From NCBI GenBank assembly GCA_026770705.1, contig JANJGN010000023.1:9424001-9488000 (forward strand): a stretch of DNA of 64,000 bases. Direction: 5' to 3'. Positions 2,114 to 64,000 of the stretch are shown in pieces. The DNA is from Isurus oxyrinchus. Lineage: Eukaryota. The notes under the pieces were generated by a model. It saw only the letters and a list, made by a program, of their open reading frames with translations, was not told the DNA's origin and made no database searches. Both the position numbers and the translations under genes were made by a program. Numbering within the stretch: position 1 is the first letter of the stretch; the number at the start of each line of letters is the position of its first letter.

Positions 2114-3350
2114 GCTGGTGTGAGGTTGGGGGTGGGGGGGGTGAGTGGACGGCTGGTGTGAGGTTGAGGGTGGGGGGGTGAGTGGACGGCTGGTGTGAGG
2201 TTGGGGGTGGGGGGGTGAGTGGACGGCTGGTGTGAGGTTGGGGGTGGGGGGGTGAGTGGACGGCTGGTGTGAGGTTGGGGGTGGGGGGGTGAGTGGACGG
2301 CTGGTGTGAGGTTGGGGGTGGGGGGTGAGTGGACGGCTGGCGTGAGGTTGGGGTTGGGGGGGTGAGTGGACGGCTGGCGTGAGGTTGGGGGTGGGGGGGG
2401 GTGAGTGGACGGCTGGCGTGAGGTTGGGGGTGGGGGGGTGAGTGGACGGCTGGCGTGAGGTTGGGGGTGGGGGGGTGAGTGGACGGCTGGCGTGAGGTTG
2501 GGGGTGGGGGGGTGAGTGGACGGCTGGCGTGAGGTTGGGGGTGGGGGGGTGAGTGGACGGCTGGCGTGAGGTTGGGGGTGGGGGGGTGAGTGGACGGCTG
2601 GCGTGAGGTTGGGGGTGGGGGGGTGAGTGGACGGCTGGCGTGAGGTTGGGGGTGGGGGGGTGAGTGGACGGCTGGCGTGAGGTTGGGGGTGGGGGGGTGA
2701 GTGGACGGCTGGCGTGAGGTTGGGGGTGGGGGGGGTGAGTGGACGGCTGGCGTGAGGTTGGGGGTGGGGGGGTGAGTGGACGGCTGGCGTGAGGTTGGGG
2801 GTGGGGGGGTGAGTGGACGGCTGGCGTGAGGTTGGGGGTGGGGGGGGGTGAGTGGACGGCTGGCGTGAGGTTGGGGGTGGGGGGGGTGAGTGGACGGCTG
2901 GCGTGAGGTTGGGGGTGGGGGGGTGAGTGGACGGCTGGCGTGAGGTTGGGGGTGGGGGGGTGAGTGGACGGCTGGCGTGAGGTTGGGGGTGGGGGGGGTG
3001 AGTGGACGGCTGGCGTGAGGTTGGGGGTGGGGGGGGGTGAGTGGACGGCTGGCGTGAGGTTGGGGGTGGGGGGGGTGAGTGGACGGCTGGCGTGAGGTTG
3101 GGGGTGGGGGGGTGAGTGGACGGCTGGCGTGAGGTTGGGGGTGGGGGGGTGAGTGGACGGCTGGCGTGAGGTTGGGGGTGGGGGGTGAGTGGACGGCTGG
3201 CGTGAGGTTGGGGGTGGGGGGGTGAGTGGACGGCTGGCGTGAGGTTGGGGGTGGGGGGGTGAGTGGACGGCTGGCGTGAGGTTGGGGGTGGGGGGGTGAG
3301 TGGACGGCTGGTGTGAGGTTGGGGGTGGGGGGGTGAGTGGACAGCTGGTG
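2114..3350 (+). repeat. G-rich minisatellite, ~38-nt unit (GCTGGYGTGAGGTTGGGGGTG(7-9)TGAGTGGACG), about 32 copies
   Basis: Directly visible tandem array. Unit length varies about 37-40 nt through the G-run. Confidence 0.97.
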
Positions 3351-5179: not shown

Positions 5180-5353
5180 AAGCGATATAGAGCTGTGTAC
5201 GACTATGCAGCAGCTGACGACGATGAGATCTCATTCTTAGATGGCGACTTAATTGTTGATGTACAACAGATTGACGAGGGATGGATGTACGGCACCGTGG
5301 AGAGAACAGGCGACACTGGCATGCTGCCAGCTAACTACGTAGAAGCGGTGTAA
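5180..5353 (+). CDS. LASP1: LASP1 terminal coding exon, SH3 domain
   Basis: Acceptor ...gtttggtag. Translates [57 protein letters not shown], near-identical to the LASP1 C-terminal SH3. Confidence 0.97.
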
Positions 5354-19068: not shown

Positions 19069-21334
19069 ACAAGTGCACCTAGGACTGAGTGCGTGCAGTT
19101 GTTGGGCTCAATGAAGTATACTTTGAGCGAGAGGTGAGCAGGAGAGGATAAAAGGTGTGGATCGAGAGGCCTACCCGCAGTGAGACCAGCGGTGGAGTGA
19201 CGTCACTAACCACAATGTGATGCAGGGAAAGCAGCTAATTGGTGAGTAGGATTGATGAGGTCTCTAACCTTTTTTTTCTCTCTTCTTAGAAATAATTTCT
19301 TAAGTATGAGATCGATACTGGCGTAAAAAAAATTAATTGCAATAAAGTGTAAAGAGCGGGGGATTCTTCAAGTGTAAAGTGGAAGGAAACCAGAGTAATT
19401 AATTAATAAATTTAATTAAAAATGATAGTGATGGCAGGATGGGTGATGTGTTGCTGCTGCAGCATGTGGGCACTGCTGGACCCCAAAGTGATCCAGAACG
19501 AACACATCTGTAGCAAGTGTTTGCCGCTCTGGGAACTTCAGATCTGAGTTGAAGAGCTGGAGTCTGAGCTGCAGACATTGCGCCACATCAGGGAGGGGGA
19601 AAGTTACCTGGACACTTTGCTGCAGGAGGCGATCACATCCTTCAGATTAAGTAATTCAAATTTGGTTTGTGATGAGGGACAGGAGGGTGTGACTGCAGGT
19701 GAGGCAGGTATGGGGACCTAGAGGTAGCATTCGAGGATCCTCGGACCCTGCACCTGTCCAACAGTTACAAGGTTCTTGCAAGCTGTGTGAACAAGAGTGG
19801 GGACTGCAGGGAGAATGAGTGAACTGACCACGGCACAGTTGTACAGGGAGCCATACAAGTTGGGGGAGGAAATTAGTTTGTAGTAATGATAGGGGTCAGT
19901 ACAATTAGGGGGATAGATACTGTTCTCTGCTGCCGTGAGTGTGAGTCCCAAAGGCTGTGTTGCCTGCCCGGTGCCAGGGTTAAGGACATCCCCTTAGGGC
20001 TGGAGAGGAACTTGGAGTGGGAGCGGAGAGATCCAGTTGTCGTCGTCCACGTTGGTACCAATGACATTAATAGGACTAGAAAGGAGGTTCTGCTGAAAGA
20101 ATTTGAACAGTTAGGAGCTAAATTAAAAAGCAGAACCTCCAAGGTAATAATCTCGGGATTACTACCTGAGCCACGGGCAAACTGGTATAGGGTAAATAAA
20201 GTCAAGGAGTTAAAAGCGTGGCTCAAAGATTGGTGTGGGAGGAATGGGCTTCAGTTCATGCCACCACCAAACACATCTTCCCTTCACCCCCCGGCGGCAT
20301 TCCGTAGGGATTGTTCCCTCCGGCATACCCTGGTCCACTCCTCCATCACCCCCTACTCCTCAATCCCCTCCTATGGCACCACCCCATGCCCACGCAAAAG
20401 ATGTAACACCTACCCCTTCTCTTCCTCTCTCCTCACCGTCCAAGGGCCCAAACAGTCCTTTCAAGTGAAGCAGCATTTCACTTGCATTTCCCCCAACTTA
20501 GTCTACTGTATTCGTTGCTCCCAATGCGGTCTCCTCTACATTGGAAAGACCAAACGTAAACTGGGCGACCACTTTGCAGAACACCTGCGGTCTGTCTGCA
20601 AGAATGACCCAAACCTCCCTGTCGCTTGCCATTTTAACACTCCACCCTGCTCTCTTGCCCACATGTCTGTCCTTGGCTTGCTGCATTGTTCCACTGAAGC
20701 CCAACGCAATGTAGAGGAACAACACCTCATCTTCCGACTAGGCACTTTACAGCCTTCCGGACTGAATATTGAATTCAACAATTTTTGGTCTTGAGCTCCC
20801 TCCTCCATCCCCACCCCCTTTCTGTTTCTTCCCCCTTCCTTTTGTTTTTTCCAATAATTTATATAGATTTTTCTTTTCCCACCTATTTCCATTATTTTAA
20901 AATATTTTTAAATCTTTTATGCCCCCCCACCCCCACTAGAGCTATACCTTGAGTGCCCTACCATCCATTCTTAATTAGCACATTCGTTTAGATAATATCA
21001 CCAACTTCAACACCTCTGTGTTCTTTTGTTCTTTTGTCTGTGACATCTTTTGATGATCTGCTTCTATCACTGCTTGCTTGTCCCTCCACTTCTCTCCTCC
21101 CACCCCCACCCCCCACATACCTTAAAGCAACTTATATTTCACCCCTTTCCTTGGATTCACCTAGTTCTGTCGAAGGGTCATGAGGACTCGAAACATCAAC
21201 TCTTTTCTTCTCCGCCGATGCTGCCAGACCTGCTGAGTTTTCCCAGGTAATTCTGTTTTTGTTTTGGATTTCCAGCATCCGCAGTTTGTTGTTTTTATCT
21301 CTGTGTTTAATTGACTGCCACTGCTCTTCAAGAA

Positions 21335-24090
21335 ATGCCTACCTCCTTGAAAAAGTTCTGTTCTTTTCTGCAACAAGATTTCCGTATCTCTCTGTTGCCT
21401 TGTTCACCTTCTTTGCTTTCCATTTCTCTCCTGGTGTTTGACAAGGTGTTTACTAAAACCTGCTTTCACAGCCATATTTCCTTTCTCAGTGACTGTCTCC
21501 GTCTCCAACTTACCCCACCTGGATTTCAACTGAAATTCCACCCCTCATGTTTTGAACACACCCAGGATTACCGGTATCTCCGGGACATAAAACGTTTCTT
21601 GGACTGCTGTTCCTGTCACATTCTGAGATCCACACTCAGTGCCATGCGTCGCCATATGAACACACTAGGCCTCTCCCTCCAGCAGCACCGCCGTACCCTT
21701 TTTCAAAGCTGCGCGTGCCCCCAGTTTCATTTTATTCTTTGTCTCATCCGACGCCTCAACAAGAAAATTTTTCTCTTTCTCTCAAGTGCTAAGGAACGCA
21801 AGCTCCAACAACTCATCGACACCAACACCCATCTAGGACCCTCCACCCCAGCCTGTCCCTCCGTCCCCACCCCATCTTCCAATCCCAGCCCCAGCCGTGT
21901 ATTCACTATACCCCCTGACCTTCCCCTCTCCGATGCTGAACGTTCAGTGCTCAGCAAAGGACTTAGTTTCATACCCTTACGCCCTCACCTCAATGAATTT
22001 CGGGCTCGGCATGATACTGAACTCTTCTTCCGCCGTCTTCGTCTCCGTGCTCACTTCTTTGGGCAGGACTCCTCTCCCCATTCAACGGATCCTTTTACCC
22101 ATCTCCAATATTCTCCCTCCACTGGACCCCTCCCTCTGGATTCTTACCTTCTCTTGATCTTTTCATTGAGAACTGTCGGCGCGACATTAGTCGTCTCAAT
22201 TTCTCTGCTCCTCTCACCCATTCTAATCTCTCTCTCTCTGAACTTACTGCACTCCGTTCTCCCAGGTCCAACCCTAACATTGTCATCAAACCCGCTGACA
22301 AGGGTGGTGCTGTTGTTGTCTGGCGCACTGACCTCTACCTCGCGGAGGCTGAGCGTCAACTCGCAGACACTTCCTCCTGCCTCTCCTTGGACCATGACCC
22401 TACCACTGAACATCAAGCCATTGTTTCCAGGACTGTCACTGACCTCATCTCCTCTGGGGATCTTCCTCCCACAGCTTCCAACCTGATAGTCGCCCAACCT
22501 CGGACGGCCCGCTTCTACCTCCTACCCAAAATCCACAAACAGGACTGTCCCGGTAGACCGATCGTCTCAGCTTGCTCCTGCCCCACAGAACTCATTTCTC
22601 GTTATCTTGACTCCGTTCTCTCTCCCCTTGTCCAGTCCCTTCCCACCTACATCCGTGATTCCTCTGACACCTTACGTCACATCAACAATTTCCAGTTCCC
22701 TGGCCCCAACTGCTTCCTCTTCACCATGGACGTCCAATCCCTCTACACCTCCATCCCCCACCAGGATGGTCTGAGGGCCCTTAGCTTCTTCCTCGAACAG
22801 AGGCCCGAACAATCCCCATCCACCACTACTCTCCTCCGACTGGCTGAACTTATTCTCACACTGAACAATTTCTCCTTCAACTCCTCTCACTTCCTCCAAA
22901 TAAAAGGTGTGGCTATGGGTACCCGCATGGGCCCCAGCTATGCCTGTCTCTTTATGGGGTATGTGGAACATTCCTTGTTCCAGTCCTACTCCGGCCCCCT
23001 TCCACAACTCTTTCTCCGGTACATCGATGATTACTTCGGTGCCGCTTCATGCTCTCGTCAGGACTTGGGAAAAATTTATTAATTTTACTTCCAATCTCCA
23101 CCTCTCCATCATTCTCACATGGTCCATCTCTGACACTTCCCTTCCCTTCCTTGATCTCTCTGTATCAATCTCTGGTGATAGACTGTCCACCAATATCTAT
23201 TACAAGCCTACTGACTCCCACAGCTACCTCAACTACAGCTCCTCACACCCCGCTTCCTGTAAGGACTCCATCTCATTCTCTCAGTTCCTTCGCCTCCGTC
23301 GCATATGTTCCGATGATGCTACCTTCAAAAACAGTTCCTCTGACATGTCCTCCTTCTTCCTTAACCGAGGTTTTCCACCCACGGTCGTGGACAGGGCCCT
23401 CAACCGTGTCCGGCCCATCTCCCGCGCATCTGCCCTCACGCCTTCTCCTCCCTCCCAGAAACCTGATAGGGTCCCCCTTGTCCTCACTTATCACCCCACC
23501 AGCCTCCGCATTCAAAGGATCATCCTCCGCCAACTCCAGCATGATGCCACCATCAAACACATCTTCCCTTCACCATCCCCCCCCCCCAATTGGCATTCCG
23601 TAGGGATCGTTCCCTCCGGGATACCCTGATCCACTCCTCCATCACCCCCTACTCCTCAATCCCCTCCTATGGCACCTCCCCATGCCCATGCAAAAGACGT
23701 AACACCTGCCCCTTCACTTCCTCTCTCCTCACTGTCCAAGGGCCCACACACTCCTTTCAAGTGAAGCAGCATTTCACTTGCATTTCCCCCAACTTAGTCT
23801 ACTGTATTTGTTGCTCCCAATGTGGTCTCCTCTACATTGGGAAGACCAAACGTAAACTGGGCGACCACTTTGCAGAACACCTGCTGTCTGTCCACAAGAA
23901 TGACCCAAACCTCCCTGTCGCTTGCCATTTTAACACTCCACCCTGCTCTCTTGCCCACATGTCTGTCCTTGGCCTGCTGCATTGTTCCAGTGAAGCCCAA
24001 CGCAAACTGGAGGAACAACACCTCATCTTCCGACTAGGCACTTTACAGCCTTCCGGACTGAATATTGAATTCAACAACTTTAGGTCGTGA
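21335..24090 (+). pseudogene. Penelope RT plus GIY-YIG endonuclease ORF, frameshifted (~22125, ~23068, ~23590)
   Basis: VIKPADKGGAVV, FYLLPKIHK, MDVQSLYTSIP, GVAMGTRMGP, LRYIDD (RT); NLVYCICCSQCGLLYIGKT (GIY-YIG). Confidence 0.92.
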
Positions 24091-24503
24091 GCTCCCTCCT
24101 CCATCCCCACCCCCTTTCTGTTTCCCCCTTCCTTTTGTTTTTTCCAATAAATTATATAGATTTTTCTTTTCCCACCTATTTCCATTATTTTTAAATCTTT
24201 TTAAATCTTTTATGCTCCCCCCACCCCCACTAGAGCTATATCTTGAGTGCCCTACCATCCATTCTTAATTAGCACATTCGTTTAGATAATATCACCAACT
24301 TTAACACCTATGTGTTCTTTTGTCTGTGACATCTTTTGATGATCTGCTTCTATCACTGCTTGCTTGTCCCTACAACCACACCACCGCCCTCCACTTCTCT
24401 ACCCCCACCCAAACCGCTCCGCCCCCCACCACCACCCCCACCCCCCACCCCCCACCTCCCACCTTAAACCAGCTTATATTTCACCCCTTCCTTGGATTCA
24501 CCT

Positions 24504-43712: not shown

Positions 43713-43956
43713 NNNNNNNNNNNNNNNNNNNNNNNNNNNNNNNNNNNNNNNNNNNNNNNNNNNNNNNNNNNNNNNNNNNNNNNNNNNNNNNNNNNNNNNN
43801 NNNNNNNNNNNNNNNNNNNNNNNNNNNNNNNNNNNNNNNNNNNNNNNNNNNNNNNNNNNNNNNNNNNNNNNNNNNNNNNNNNNNNNNNNNNNNNNNNNNN
43901 NNNNNNNNNNNNNNNNNNNNNNNNNNNNNNNNNNNNNNNNNNNNNNNNNNNNNNNN
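43713..43956. other. Assembly gap (244 N)
   Basis: Run of N. Confidence 0.99.
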
Positions 43957-60642: not shown

Positions 60643-62180
60643 TGAAAGATCTTCTGGTCTAGCAAGCACAACCTGACCAGACAGAATGCAGCCCTCATGT
60701 GTCAACAACCCACCCTAGTTACACAACCTCCTGGGAGATCCAATAAAGTAGCAGGAAAAAGACTGAGGGTAATTTAGGAATAAGTGAAATTCCTTACTGT
60801 TACCATTTCTTATTCCCTGAGGTACTCAAGCATATCTGTTTTACTGATGTTGGGTGAAGCTTAAATACTAGCAAAATGGAACTCCACCTCTTTACTTCAA
60901 AATGGTGCCAAGGAATCTTTTACATCCATCTGAGGGGGCAGACAGGGCCTCAGTTTAACGCCACTCCTGAAAGTATCTCTAACTTTTCTTTAGCTTAAGG
61001 CACTTTCCAGTCTCACAAACTAGTTTACTCTCAAAGGACTACACACTTACAACAGGGAGTGGGTCATCTATTCGACTTTTCTTGGCTCTATTCTGGCACC
61101 GTCTCCTTCTAGAAAAGAAAGTCATGGGCTCATGACCCACTATAGTGACTTGGGTGCATAACCTCAGCTGATGGTCCCAATGCAGTACTGAGGGAATGCA
61201 GCACTGCCCGAGCTGCCATCTTTTGGAAAAGAAGCTGAGGCACTGACTGCCTTTTAGTTGGATGTAAAGAATCCTATGGTGCTATTGAAAGCAAAGAATG
61301 TCAGTTTTCCCGCCGTCTTAAAAAATATTTATCCTCAGCCAACAGCCCTTAAAAAAAACTGTTCATTTATCTGATTGCTGTTTGCGAAACCTTGCTGCAT
61401 GCAAATTGGCTGCTATCTTTCGCCATGTCCGAAATCACTGGATTGTTCCCTCTGAGCTGGAAGGAGGAAGGCTACAGAGTAAGAAAGCACATGGTAAATT
61501 AGCGTTGAAACTTTTGGTGATGTGCAGGCAGTGACAAGATTTCAGGGTTGTTTTCCAGGGTTAGGATCTGTCTGGTCTCTCTGCTGCATTTAAAATGCTC
61601 CGTGCCACTATTCTAAGAAGAGAAGGAACGTTTCCCTGGTATCTCGGGCTGAAAGAAATGGATTAACTCTCATTTATCTCATTGCTGTTTGTGGAACCGT
61701 GGCTGTATATAAATTGGCTGCTGGGCCTCACCAAATTCTAAATCACCAGACTGTTCTGTCTGAGCTGGAAGGGAGGTAGCTGCAGAGTAAGAAATCAGAC
61801 ATTAATTAGCCGTAAGTTTTTGGTGTTTATTAGTGATAAGCGCACATTAACAAGTTTGCAAAATCTGCCAAATTTCTCTTCTATTTCTGGCTGATCTGAT
61901 CCCCTTGTAAAATTCCTGGGACAGTCCCTGGCTCGAACGCGCCAATATAGTCGCGAGTTTATACGAGTAACCTTTGTCGATTGGCAGTTTTCTAACTTTC
62001 ATGTCTCAACAGTTACAGAAAAGCAAGATTTTAAAAATAGTTGAAGTCTTATTAATAAACCAGAGACAGGTATTTAATTTCCACAGATTCCACTTATATT
62101 CCAACATGGTTCCAGAAGTTTCTGACCCAGGTTAGACACGCATGGTTTAGATACCTGTAGCTGTAAACGTGGCAGTACCA

Positions 62181-62739
62181 ATGGCATTATTGATGAGCTG
62201 GGTTTCCAGAACATTCTGACACATGTTAGGCATATGCAGTCGCTGTATCTGTAGGTATAAATGTAACCCATGTCATTTATCTGAACACAGTCCCAGGAAA
62301 GGAGTCAAGTAGCAGAAAAGAGGCTCTTGTGCCTTTAATTGAGCAAATATCAGCCGGAACCATCTTAAGAGCGGTAAGTGCCGCTAACAAAGTTTTTTGC
62401 TGGACACTTGAACATCTACCTTCGTTCTTGAGAAGATGGACATTGACATTGAAGGAGTCCAGCAGCATTGGTAATGTTGGGTTCAATATGCAAATTTTGA
62501 ATAGTAGTAATTTGGGGGGGAACCAGCATCTCAATGGTCCAGTTATTAATAATATGGAAACAGTTCTGCAGATACTGAGAACATGGTTAATAATGATTAG
62601 CTGTGGATTGTTAATGTCTTCCACTTACAGTAAATGGCAAAAATATCAACACGGCGGGAGTGTTTCCAACAGCAGCAGAGAAATGGAAAATTTTGAAGAT
62701 TCTGCCCAGATAATTCAATGTGGAATGAAAGGAAACTAA
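62181..62739 (+). pseudogene. Disrupted paralogue (copy A) of the orphan ORF
   Basis: ATG 62181 gives MALLMSWVSRTF*, TGA at 62217-62219, then CSRCICRYKC, a 1-nt frameshift near 62268, then ...EQISAGTILRAVSAANKVFCWTLEHLPSFLR. AATAAA at 62787-62792. Confidence 0.6.
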
Positions 62740-63608
62740 CAGCCATCGAACACTTTTTATTAACTGTGATTTTTTTGTTGAAAGTGAATAAATTAATGAA
62801 CACCTCAAAGTCTGTGCATTGATTATTAGCTAGATAATATTTAAGACGTTACCTGCATAATTATATAATATTTATTATATTAAAGTTATCAGGGTGCCAT
62901 CCTTTGCTCAGGGGGTAGCAGCATTTCTAAGGTAGAGATTTGTGGGTTCAAAATCCACAAGACTTGAGCACAAAATCCAGGCTCTTGCTTGAGTGCAGTA
63001 CTGAGGGAGTGCTCCACTGTTGGAACTCTGTCTTTCAGGTCAAGGGTTTGTCTGGCTTCTCTAGTGGAGTTAAAATGCCCCCTTCCAATATTCAAAGAGA
63101 AGGAGCGTTGAAAGAAATGGATTAACTTTCATTTATCTCATTGCTGTTTTTGGGACCTGGCTGTATATAAATTGGCTGCTGTGTTTTGCCATGTTCTAAA
63201 TCACCGGATTATTCTCTCTGATCTGGAAGGAAGGCAGCTGCAGAATAAACCTAAAGTTTTATTAGTCATGAATGTGCAATAAAAAGTTTGCACAATCTGA
63301 TTAAATTCTCTCCTGGCTCTGGCTGTTCTGATCCCCTTTTAAAATTCCTGGGACGGTTCCTCACTCGAACGCACTAATATGATTGTGAGTTTACACAAGT
63401 AACCTTTGTTGATTGGCAGTTTGCTAACTTTCATGTCTCAAAAGTTACCAAAAAGCAAGATGTAAAAAATATTTTTAAGTCTTATTGATAAAAACAGACA
63501 GGTATTTCATTTCTACTGATGTCATTATTGCATCATGCTTCCAGAAGATTCTGGCCAGGTTAGGCTTGCGCAGTTTAGGACATCTGTAGCTGTAAACGTG
63601 GCACTACC

Positions 63609-64000
63609 ATGGCGTTATTGATGGGTTGGCCTTCCAGAGGTTCGGCCTCATGCATGCGCAGTAGCTGTCTCTGCAGGTATAATTGTGGCTGTGTCGCGTG
63701 TCTGAACACAGACAGTAGGAAGGAGTTTATGCAGCATATCACAGCAGAAGTCGCCAGAAAAATGGCAAGTTCTTTTAAAAATGTTTTGAGATTTATAATT
63801 AGACATTTACCTTCATCCTTTAAAGAAACTAAAGAAATATCAGAAGTGGCTCGGAATTTTAATTTTGACAGAAATAAAATTGCAGAAGTAACGAACAAAT
63901 CGAAGAACATAAATTATTTTAGTCTATTTAATATAAATTGCGTAGTTAACAATTATTATGCAGTCAAAGATAAAAAGGATGAAAATAATTCACTTATCAA
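63609..64000 (+). CDS. Orphan ORF, >130 codons, open to the window edge (copy B)
   Basis: ACCATGG Kozak; MALLMGWPSRGSASCMRSSCLCRYNCGCVACLNTDSRKEFMQHITAEVARKMASSFKNVLRFIIRHLPSSFKETKEISEVARNFNFDRNKIAEVTNKSKNINYFSLFNINCVVNNYYAVKDKKDENNSLI... Open despite AT-rich DNA. Absent from the ORF track, apparently because no stop lies in the window. Confidence 0.6.
   Translation, partial: MALLMGWPSRGSASCMRSSCLCRYNCGCVACLNTDSRKEFMQHITAEVARKMASSFKNVLRFIIRHLPSSFKETKEISEVARNFNFDRNKIAEVTNKSKNINYFSLFNINCVVNNYYAVKDKKDENNSLI

Follow-up and report, generated by a model that had tools for sequence, protein, structure and literature searches.

Birth-and-death families of immune, toxin and reproductive genes consist of tandem copies with high amino-acid divergence. 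Lineage-specific (orphan) genes have been explained by fast divergence (PMC7660931, PMC11662153). In PMC8872073, 80 duplicates with a frameshift are described, NOTCH2NL and ARHGAP11B being two examples, in which the shift lies mostly near the C-terminus, and PMC2588116 reports divergence peaks in duplicates under conversion, namely, CG18281/CG17637. The locus analyzed in this work is a pair of tandem units, A and B, at the 3' end of the window, i.e., the whole stretch of 64,000 nucleotides under study. The next 97 kb were added 3' of the window (161 kb in total), and positions above 64000, referred to as extended, continue the window count.

Like orphan genes, the predicted proteins of A and B are short, have no detectable homologue and, as paralogues, are 24-26% identical in a helix region; unlike established orphan genes, they are known here from sequence and were compared with one close relative. 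Similar to NOTCH2NL/ARHGAP11B, the last ~60 codons of A are in another frame and still open, whereas the parent is without known function, and A and B further differ in their predicted start and splicing. As in CG18281/CG17637, a coding peak of mostly amino-acid-changing divergence is found inside more similar flanks, but the flanks of A and B are about 20% diverged. In contrast to birth-and-death families, there are two copies, neither start is signal-peptide-like (by eye), no domain was matched, and no disulphide pattern is common to A and B. The locus is probably a pair of genes that is restricted to one lineage, diverges fast and belongs to a known evolutionary kind. The reading that we prefer, and which we hold tentatively, is that of two small lineage-restricted genes with a helix region that may be under selection for amino-acid change. 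An old tandem duplication generated both copies, and either one contains a long open frame. B would be read from ATG 63609 into a protein of 177 aa, and A from ATG 62106, its main frame being reached by removal of a 124-nt intron, giving 169 aa, of which the C-terminal 60 residues would be frameshift-derived. Transcription may be driven by a TATA of SINE-remnant origin, together with a CpG-rich CCAAT region.

The tandem duplication of ~1.46 kb units described in the earlier note is real. Both units lie side by side; the TATA of B follows that of A at a distance of 1458, and the offset between the copies drops to 1391 in the coding block. Homology runs through the 3' halves (score of 103.5 versus 58 ± 9, reached in 0/500) and includes the 3' flank of A (62788-62872, + strand), in which 62/80 positions are identical to the B counterpart at extended 66400-66498 (0/300 shuffles reach the score). 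The 3' flank of B is displaced by ~2.2 kb that include repeat fragments. More copies had been considered possible to the right, in line with the birth-and-death evolution proposed in the note. DNA searches of the 4.98-Gb assembly and the 97-kb extension gave units A and B as the two places only, so that the locus is a pair and not an array or a multi-copy family. Protein searches of the genome with the frame of each copy returned that copy itself, and paralogues as far apart as A and B (below ~25% identity) consequently escape such searches. The unique parts of both units were found at single-copy depth in two contig sets of the close relative, and only the SINE ends are repeated, which rules out the dispersed transposable element that had been raised as a possible explanation. 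The comparisons with this relative reported below are based on the 40 of 67 substitutions and 12 of 18 indels that were listed.

The sites reported previously were all found in place: TATATAAA at 61706 and 63164, the donor CAG/GTATTT at 62070 and 63502, CTGTAG ending at 62160 and 63589, ATG at 62181 and 63609, and AATAAA at 62787. The first of these motifs lies in SINE sequence in both units. A SINE remnant opens unit A (61549-61724, + strand; 70/74 identical to B), and a SINE opens unit B (62926-63186, + strand), where contig depth amounts to 19,000-190,000 as compared with ~18 elsewhere. The TATA corresponds to a decayed SINE motif, and TATATAAA is present in 0/14 other copies of that SINE part in the 161 kb. 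All 24/24 bases around the TATA are common to A and B. Identity between A and B reaches 95% in the SINE part and 81% elsewhere (P=0.004), as would be expected from co-option as well as from a conversion tract. At 61147-61515 (+ strand), a SINE of family D2 with ~90 nt of unique flank forms a third partial copy of the unit 5' end, 77-79% identical to both units; within it, the stretch 61357-61515 repeats part of the SINE end together with its flank, 308 nt upstream of the same sequence in A, and the TATA is absent.

Downstream of the SINE part, the putative promoter/first-exon region of A (61800-62069, + strand) contains CCAAT-like boxes, is CpG-rich at 61900-62000 and ends at donor 62070, whereas that of B (63187-63501, + strand; donor at 63502) is poorer in CpG. 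The observed/expected CpG ratios are 1.29 for A and 0.73 for B, compared with a background of 0.32, and the matching 100 nt contain 7 CpG in A and 3 in B. When the 5' alignment is taken as a whole, A and B have lost CpG to a similar extent (7/13 versus 6/11), so that the excess of A over B is local. Among the differences listed, the relative shows no change over the 240 nt of the A promoter at 61800-62039 (P about 0.01, post hoc). The region that follows consists of about 2.5 units of a ~90-nt tandem repeat internal to A (62070-62305, + strand), which holds both candidate acceptors; 62110-62170 and 62204-62264 are 67% identical (E=0.003). The repeat predates the A/B duplication and accounts for the two CTGTAG sites per unit. 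It is seen in both copies (62070-62305 and 63502-63720), and its units start near GT and finish in AG.

Splice sites were scored with frequency matrices and expressed as percentiles among candidate sites. The CTGTAG acceptor proposed earlier, ending at 62160 and 63589, is present as a motif in both copies but scores poorly, at the 74th percentile of AGs, and is doubtful. The second acceptor (62254 in A, 63676 in B) reaches the 95th and 98th percentiles, and the second donor (62131 and 63559) the 97th and 98th. For A, these sites define a gene model with a predicted short coding exon at 62106-62130 (+ strand), which starts at an ATG in strong context and ends in phase 1 at donor 62131 (97th percentile), followed by a predicted 124-nt intron at 62131-62254 (+ strand; acceptor at the 95th percentile). 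The main open frame at 62255-62739 (+ strand) is stop-free from 62230 to 62736 (169 codons) and corresponds to the frame of B up to ~62560, after which it is shifted. Donor and acceptor are in phase, and the predicted spliced product has 169 aa from ATG 62106 or 204 aa from ATG 62001, which is in the same frame. AATAAA (62787-62792, + strand) is located 47 nt past the stop of A.

Two defects had been ascribed to copy A, a premature TGA and a frameshift. Both are present when A is read from ATG 62181, namely, TGA 62217-62219 and a 1-nt shift near 62265; this model gives 12 aa in A. Under the alternative splice, ATG 62181 and this TGA fall into the intron, and the 169-aa frame is intact. A is hence broken under one gene model and intact under the other, and the one fragment seen besides the two copies is the 5' fragment at 61357-61515. 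For copy B, which had been reported as open over more than 130 aa, the extension of the window places the end of ORF B at 177 aa (63609-64142, + strand; 63609-64000 within the window), with TAA at extended 64140-64142. The model from ATG 63609 thus yields 177 aa in B, and the A-type splice applied to B yields 9 aa. No single model keeps both copies intact, so that two different gene models are needed, which counts against the two-gene reading. Among the differences listed, the intact and broken states of A and B are common to the relative, which also has the TGA.

The history of the 3' part of A can be read in two ways. Downstream of 62560, A departs from the frame of B by shifts of 8 and 5 nt, leaving its last ~60 codons frameshifted. 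The DNA of the A C-terminus still encodes a B-like peptide in other frames, and the stop of A is within one codon of that of B, which suggests that the frame of B is the older one there. B might be the sole gene and A a pseudogene, in which an ancestral B-type frame was lost by a stop and three frameshifts, the open frame of A being a leftover plus luck. Such a reading agrees with the silent excess in the 3' part, which leans to the frame of B and not to that of A (P from 0.03 to 0.42, depending on the alignment setting), and with the differences of the relative in A, which look neutral (1-2 of 8 listed are silent, 2.2 expected), as well as with the shared TGA. It has to be set against the 169-codon frame, the shifted 60-codon tail that is open in only 0.7% of shuffles, the donor and acceptor, which are in phase and preceded by a strong ATG, the promoter of A, which is richer in CpG and less changed, and the nearby poly(A) signal. 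Moreover, with flanks diverged by 19-22%, a divergence of 38% is more than A could have reached by neutral decay on its own. We rate the loss of A as unlikely but as a live rival; with an intact predicted spliced model and a CpG-rich promoter that is unchanged in the relative over 240 nt, the view of A as a dead copy is doubtful.

The central claim of the earlier note, that the coding part diverges faster than the non-coding flank, is supported by measurement. The 5' non-coding sequences of A and B are identical at 258/318 and 86/106 positions, i.e., 81% (d 0.22), close to the ~80% estimated by eye, and the distal 3' flank is identical at 62/80 positions, about 78% (d 0.27), in gapped AT-rich columns. 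In contrast, a gapless block of A that ends in HLPS (62335-62433, + strand) retains 61/99 nt (62%; pS 0.23, pN 0.42), and its identity differs from that of the 5' flank at P=1.5e-4. Directly 3' of the stops, identity over 45 nt amounts to 61%. A single change point, at which identity falls from 83% to 64%, was detected (0-1 of 500 permutations); its support interval of 62191-62359 is wide and fits the second acceptor as well as the ATG. The frame has therefore likely diverged faster than its flanks.

A recount of the 31-codon block, which had been picked after the fact, gave the same 57/93 nt and 8/31 aa as before. The proportions of silent and amino-acid-changing differences are pS=5/20.3 (dS 0.30) and pN=31/72.7 (dN 0.63), resulting in a dN/dS of about 2.1. 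The pS of the block is like that of the flank (P=0.55) and its pN is not (P=6e-5), and among the six frames of the block pN exceeds pS in the coding frame alone. Silent changes number 5, as compared with 8-10 under neutral drift, a deficit with P=0.012-0.022 by simulation and P=0.08-0.12 in a second neutral simulation. The mismatches are distributed over the codon positions as 12/13/13, like in neutral DNA, which speaks against selection, and dN/dS is <1 in hand-picked 3' blocks. The diversifying selection proposed earlier is partly supported: the ratio is elevated, but its significance is marginal (Fisher P=0.11 for pN>pS; P=0.01-0.12 in the simulations); positive selection on the block is plausible.

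The contrast could also originate from the flank rather than from the frame, if the duplication were older (d about 0.5), the 5' 700 nt had been homogenised by conversion or were constrained, and the ORFs had drifted. The single change point from 83% to 64%, the SINE part that is more similar than its surroundings, the equal divergence at the three codon positions and the low identity of the 45 nt past the stops are all consistent with this scenario, and tandem copies in Drosophila often undergo conversion (PMC2588116). However, the distal 3' flank resembles the 5' flank (P=0.44) and differs from the block (P=0.02); this check for gene conversion, based on 80 gapped columns of a short flank, argues against conversion at the 5' side. 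The block also contains fewer silent changes than neutral drift would leave. We consider a contrast generated by the flank to be rather improbable, although gene conversion is a live rival.

Several observations suggest that the frames are coding. In 2000 dinucleotide shuffles, the frame length of A (169 codons) was reached in 3/2000 and that of B (187 codons) in 0/2000. Of 44 AT-rich tiles of the interval, only 4 reach 169 codons, namely, those of units A and B and a further two derived from repeats. Between the second acceptor and 62560, the length differences between A and B keep the frame (30, 60 and 3 nt), and most indels of the 5' flank are of 1 nt. In the unique 2015 bases of the units, 38 differences from the relative were listed (1.9%), which makes the duplication about ten times as old as the separation from this relative. 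As far as 64073, 7/15 listed differences in ORF B are silent, 3.5 being expected (P=0.034), and four of the listed indels flank ORF B with none inside. The relative therefore leans towards purifying selection on B. A patch at 63714-63741 (+ strand) accumulates 8 differences in 28 nt, 4 of them silent and none creating a stop (clustering P=4.5e-5); outside this patch, 3/7 are silent (P=0.24). No template for the version of the patch in the relative was found in the 161 kb (best other match of 25/40), and copy A is not its source. The contig of the relative that corresponds to B has 33 inserted letters and that of A 7 gap letters, both unplaced. Two contig sets presumed to derive from RNA matched the repeat ends of the units only, which is neutral with regard to expression. 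B is probably coding, its frame being open beyond chance.

That the units are instead a duplicated non-coding element, regulatory or an lncRNA, with two accidental open frames, appears quite improbable. It would agree with the lack of a homologue, domain or confident structure (pLDDT of 36-37, Atlas recognition <2300) and with a TATA that is accounted for by SINE decay, but both frames exceed the shuffles, only 4 of the 44 tiles (A and B included) reach 169 codons, and B shows a silent excess. Searches of the units against Rfam returned 4 matches, all far below the gathering score, and the z values of 10/10 folds range from -0.74 to +0.22, so that neither an RNA family nor a stable RNA structure was detected. 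Coding by the minus strand, on which A and B have open frames at 62280-62624 and 63578-63913 that agree at 13/32 residues of the block (pS 0.48 > pN 0.37), is very improbable, since three closed frames with the same or higher pS mark the antisense pattern as neutral, the relative changes 8/10 affected codons in the minus frame of B, the minus frames are shorter (115 and 112 codons) and have no shared start, and the conserved promoter-like region would lie 3' of them.

For the preferred reading of two genes, a more specific version can be formulated, according to which the pair would represent a protein family of cartilaginous fish that is new to science, with both copies alive by different routes: a TATA from a SINE, a start in what is the intron of the other copy, a tail born by frameshift, a diversifying helix, and a 28-nt patch exchanged or rewritten between close species as in recognition genes. 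In this detailed form we regard the reading as doubtful. The general reading of two genes is supported by the promoter of A, which keeps its CpG and is unchanged over 240 nt, by the tail that is so seldom open by chance, and by the dS of the block (0.30), which matches the flanks (0.22 and 0.27) whereas dN is 0.63. The fact that the 28-nt patch supplies 4 of the 7 silent changes of B weighs against it.

In the predicted B protein, residues 15-31 include six Cys, residues 46-65 form a strongly amphipathic stretch, and the tail is rich in Asn. The helix region is also present in A, which has no Cys cluster. The hydrophobic moment is 2.0 for the B stretch and 1.66 for a moderately hydrophobic stretch in the shifted tail of A. 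In agreement with the previous assessment that no known family is represented, neither homologue, domain, fold nor Atlas neighbour emerged. In libraries of uncontrolled shark content, 0/20, 0/111 and 0/835 candidates scored at E<=1, and with B as the only query 0 of 1.84 billion sequences matched at E<=0.001. The Atlas gave no match, with recognition values of 1284 and 1864, below 2300, and AlphaFold on single sequences resulted in pLDDT values of 36 and 37. The Pfam family FAS_N (PF17828) aligned with B residues 39-93 at 22 bits, below the cut-off of 23.1, with no match in the block of A, and was taken as a chance helix match. Look-alikes of RHIM and BH3 were dropped, as they are not common to both copies and have no Pfam match. 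Nothing was found in support of the link to immune, toxin or reproductive families that had been suggested. A speculative and rather unlikely role would be that of an intracellular protein whose amphipathic helix binds membranes or a partner, helped in B by the Cys cluster, in the germ line or another conflict-driven tissue; the idea of germ-line expression derives only from the CpG retained in A.

For one shark, a very slow sequence change of 7e-10 per base per generation has been reported (PMC10587355). If real, A and B would form a pair of fast-evolving genes that is missing from annotation, although their lineage is noted for changing very slowly in sequence, and would offer a small model case for duplicates that part via changes in start site, splicing and frame. 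As two predicted genes without known function, their reach is modest for now. A search for publications on the locus (lasp1/plxdc1 synteny in sharks) retrieved none, and supplements and genome annotations may list the ORFs.

The pair is located between LASP1 and a PLXDC1-like gene on the minus strand. LASP1 exons on the + strand were identified at 914-1024 (end of the nebulin repeat) and 5180-5350 (SH3, last exon; best match PDB 3I35, E=4e-31). The PLXDC1-like gene has a transmembrane exon at extended 127067-127222 and its last exon near 107300, and a paralogue with 45% identity is present on contig C3. FBXO47, which in mammals lies between LASP1 and PLXDC1, was dropped as a gene of this interval, since its domain exons were found on a different contig (C30:23961115-23966908). 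Of 207 intergenic frames of 55 or more codons, 147 were compared with Pfam without a match; of two controls, only SH3 matched. Within LASP1, window positions 2114-3348 hold a 37-nt minisatellite (33 copies, 97% matches) with long proline-rich minus-strand frames. A run of 244 N at 43713-43956 adjoins a TG-rich repeat, and retroelement copies with broken reverse-transcriptase-like frames (by eye) are found at 19877-24200 and at extended 132259-134892 and 156664-160020.
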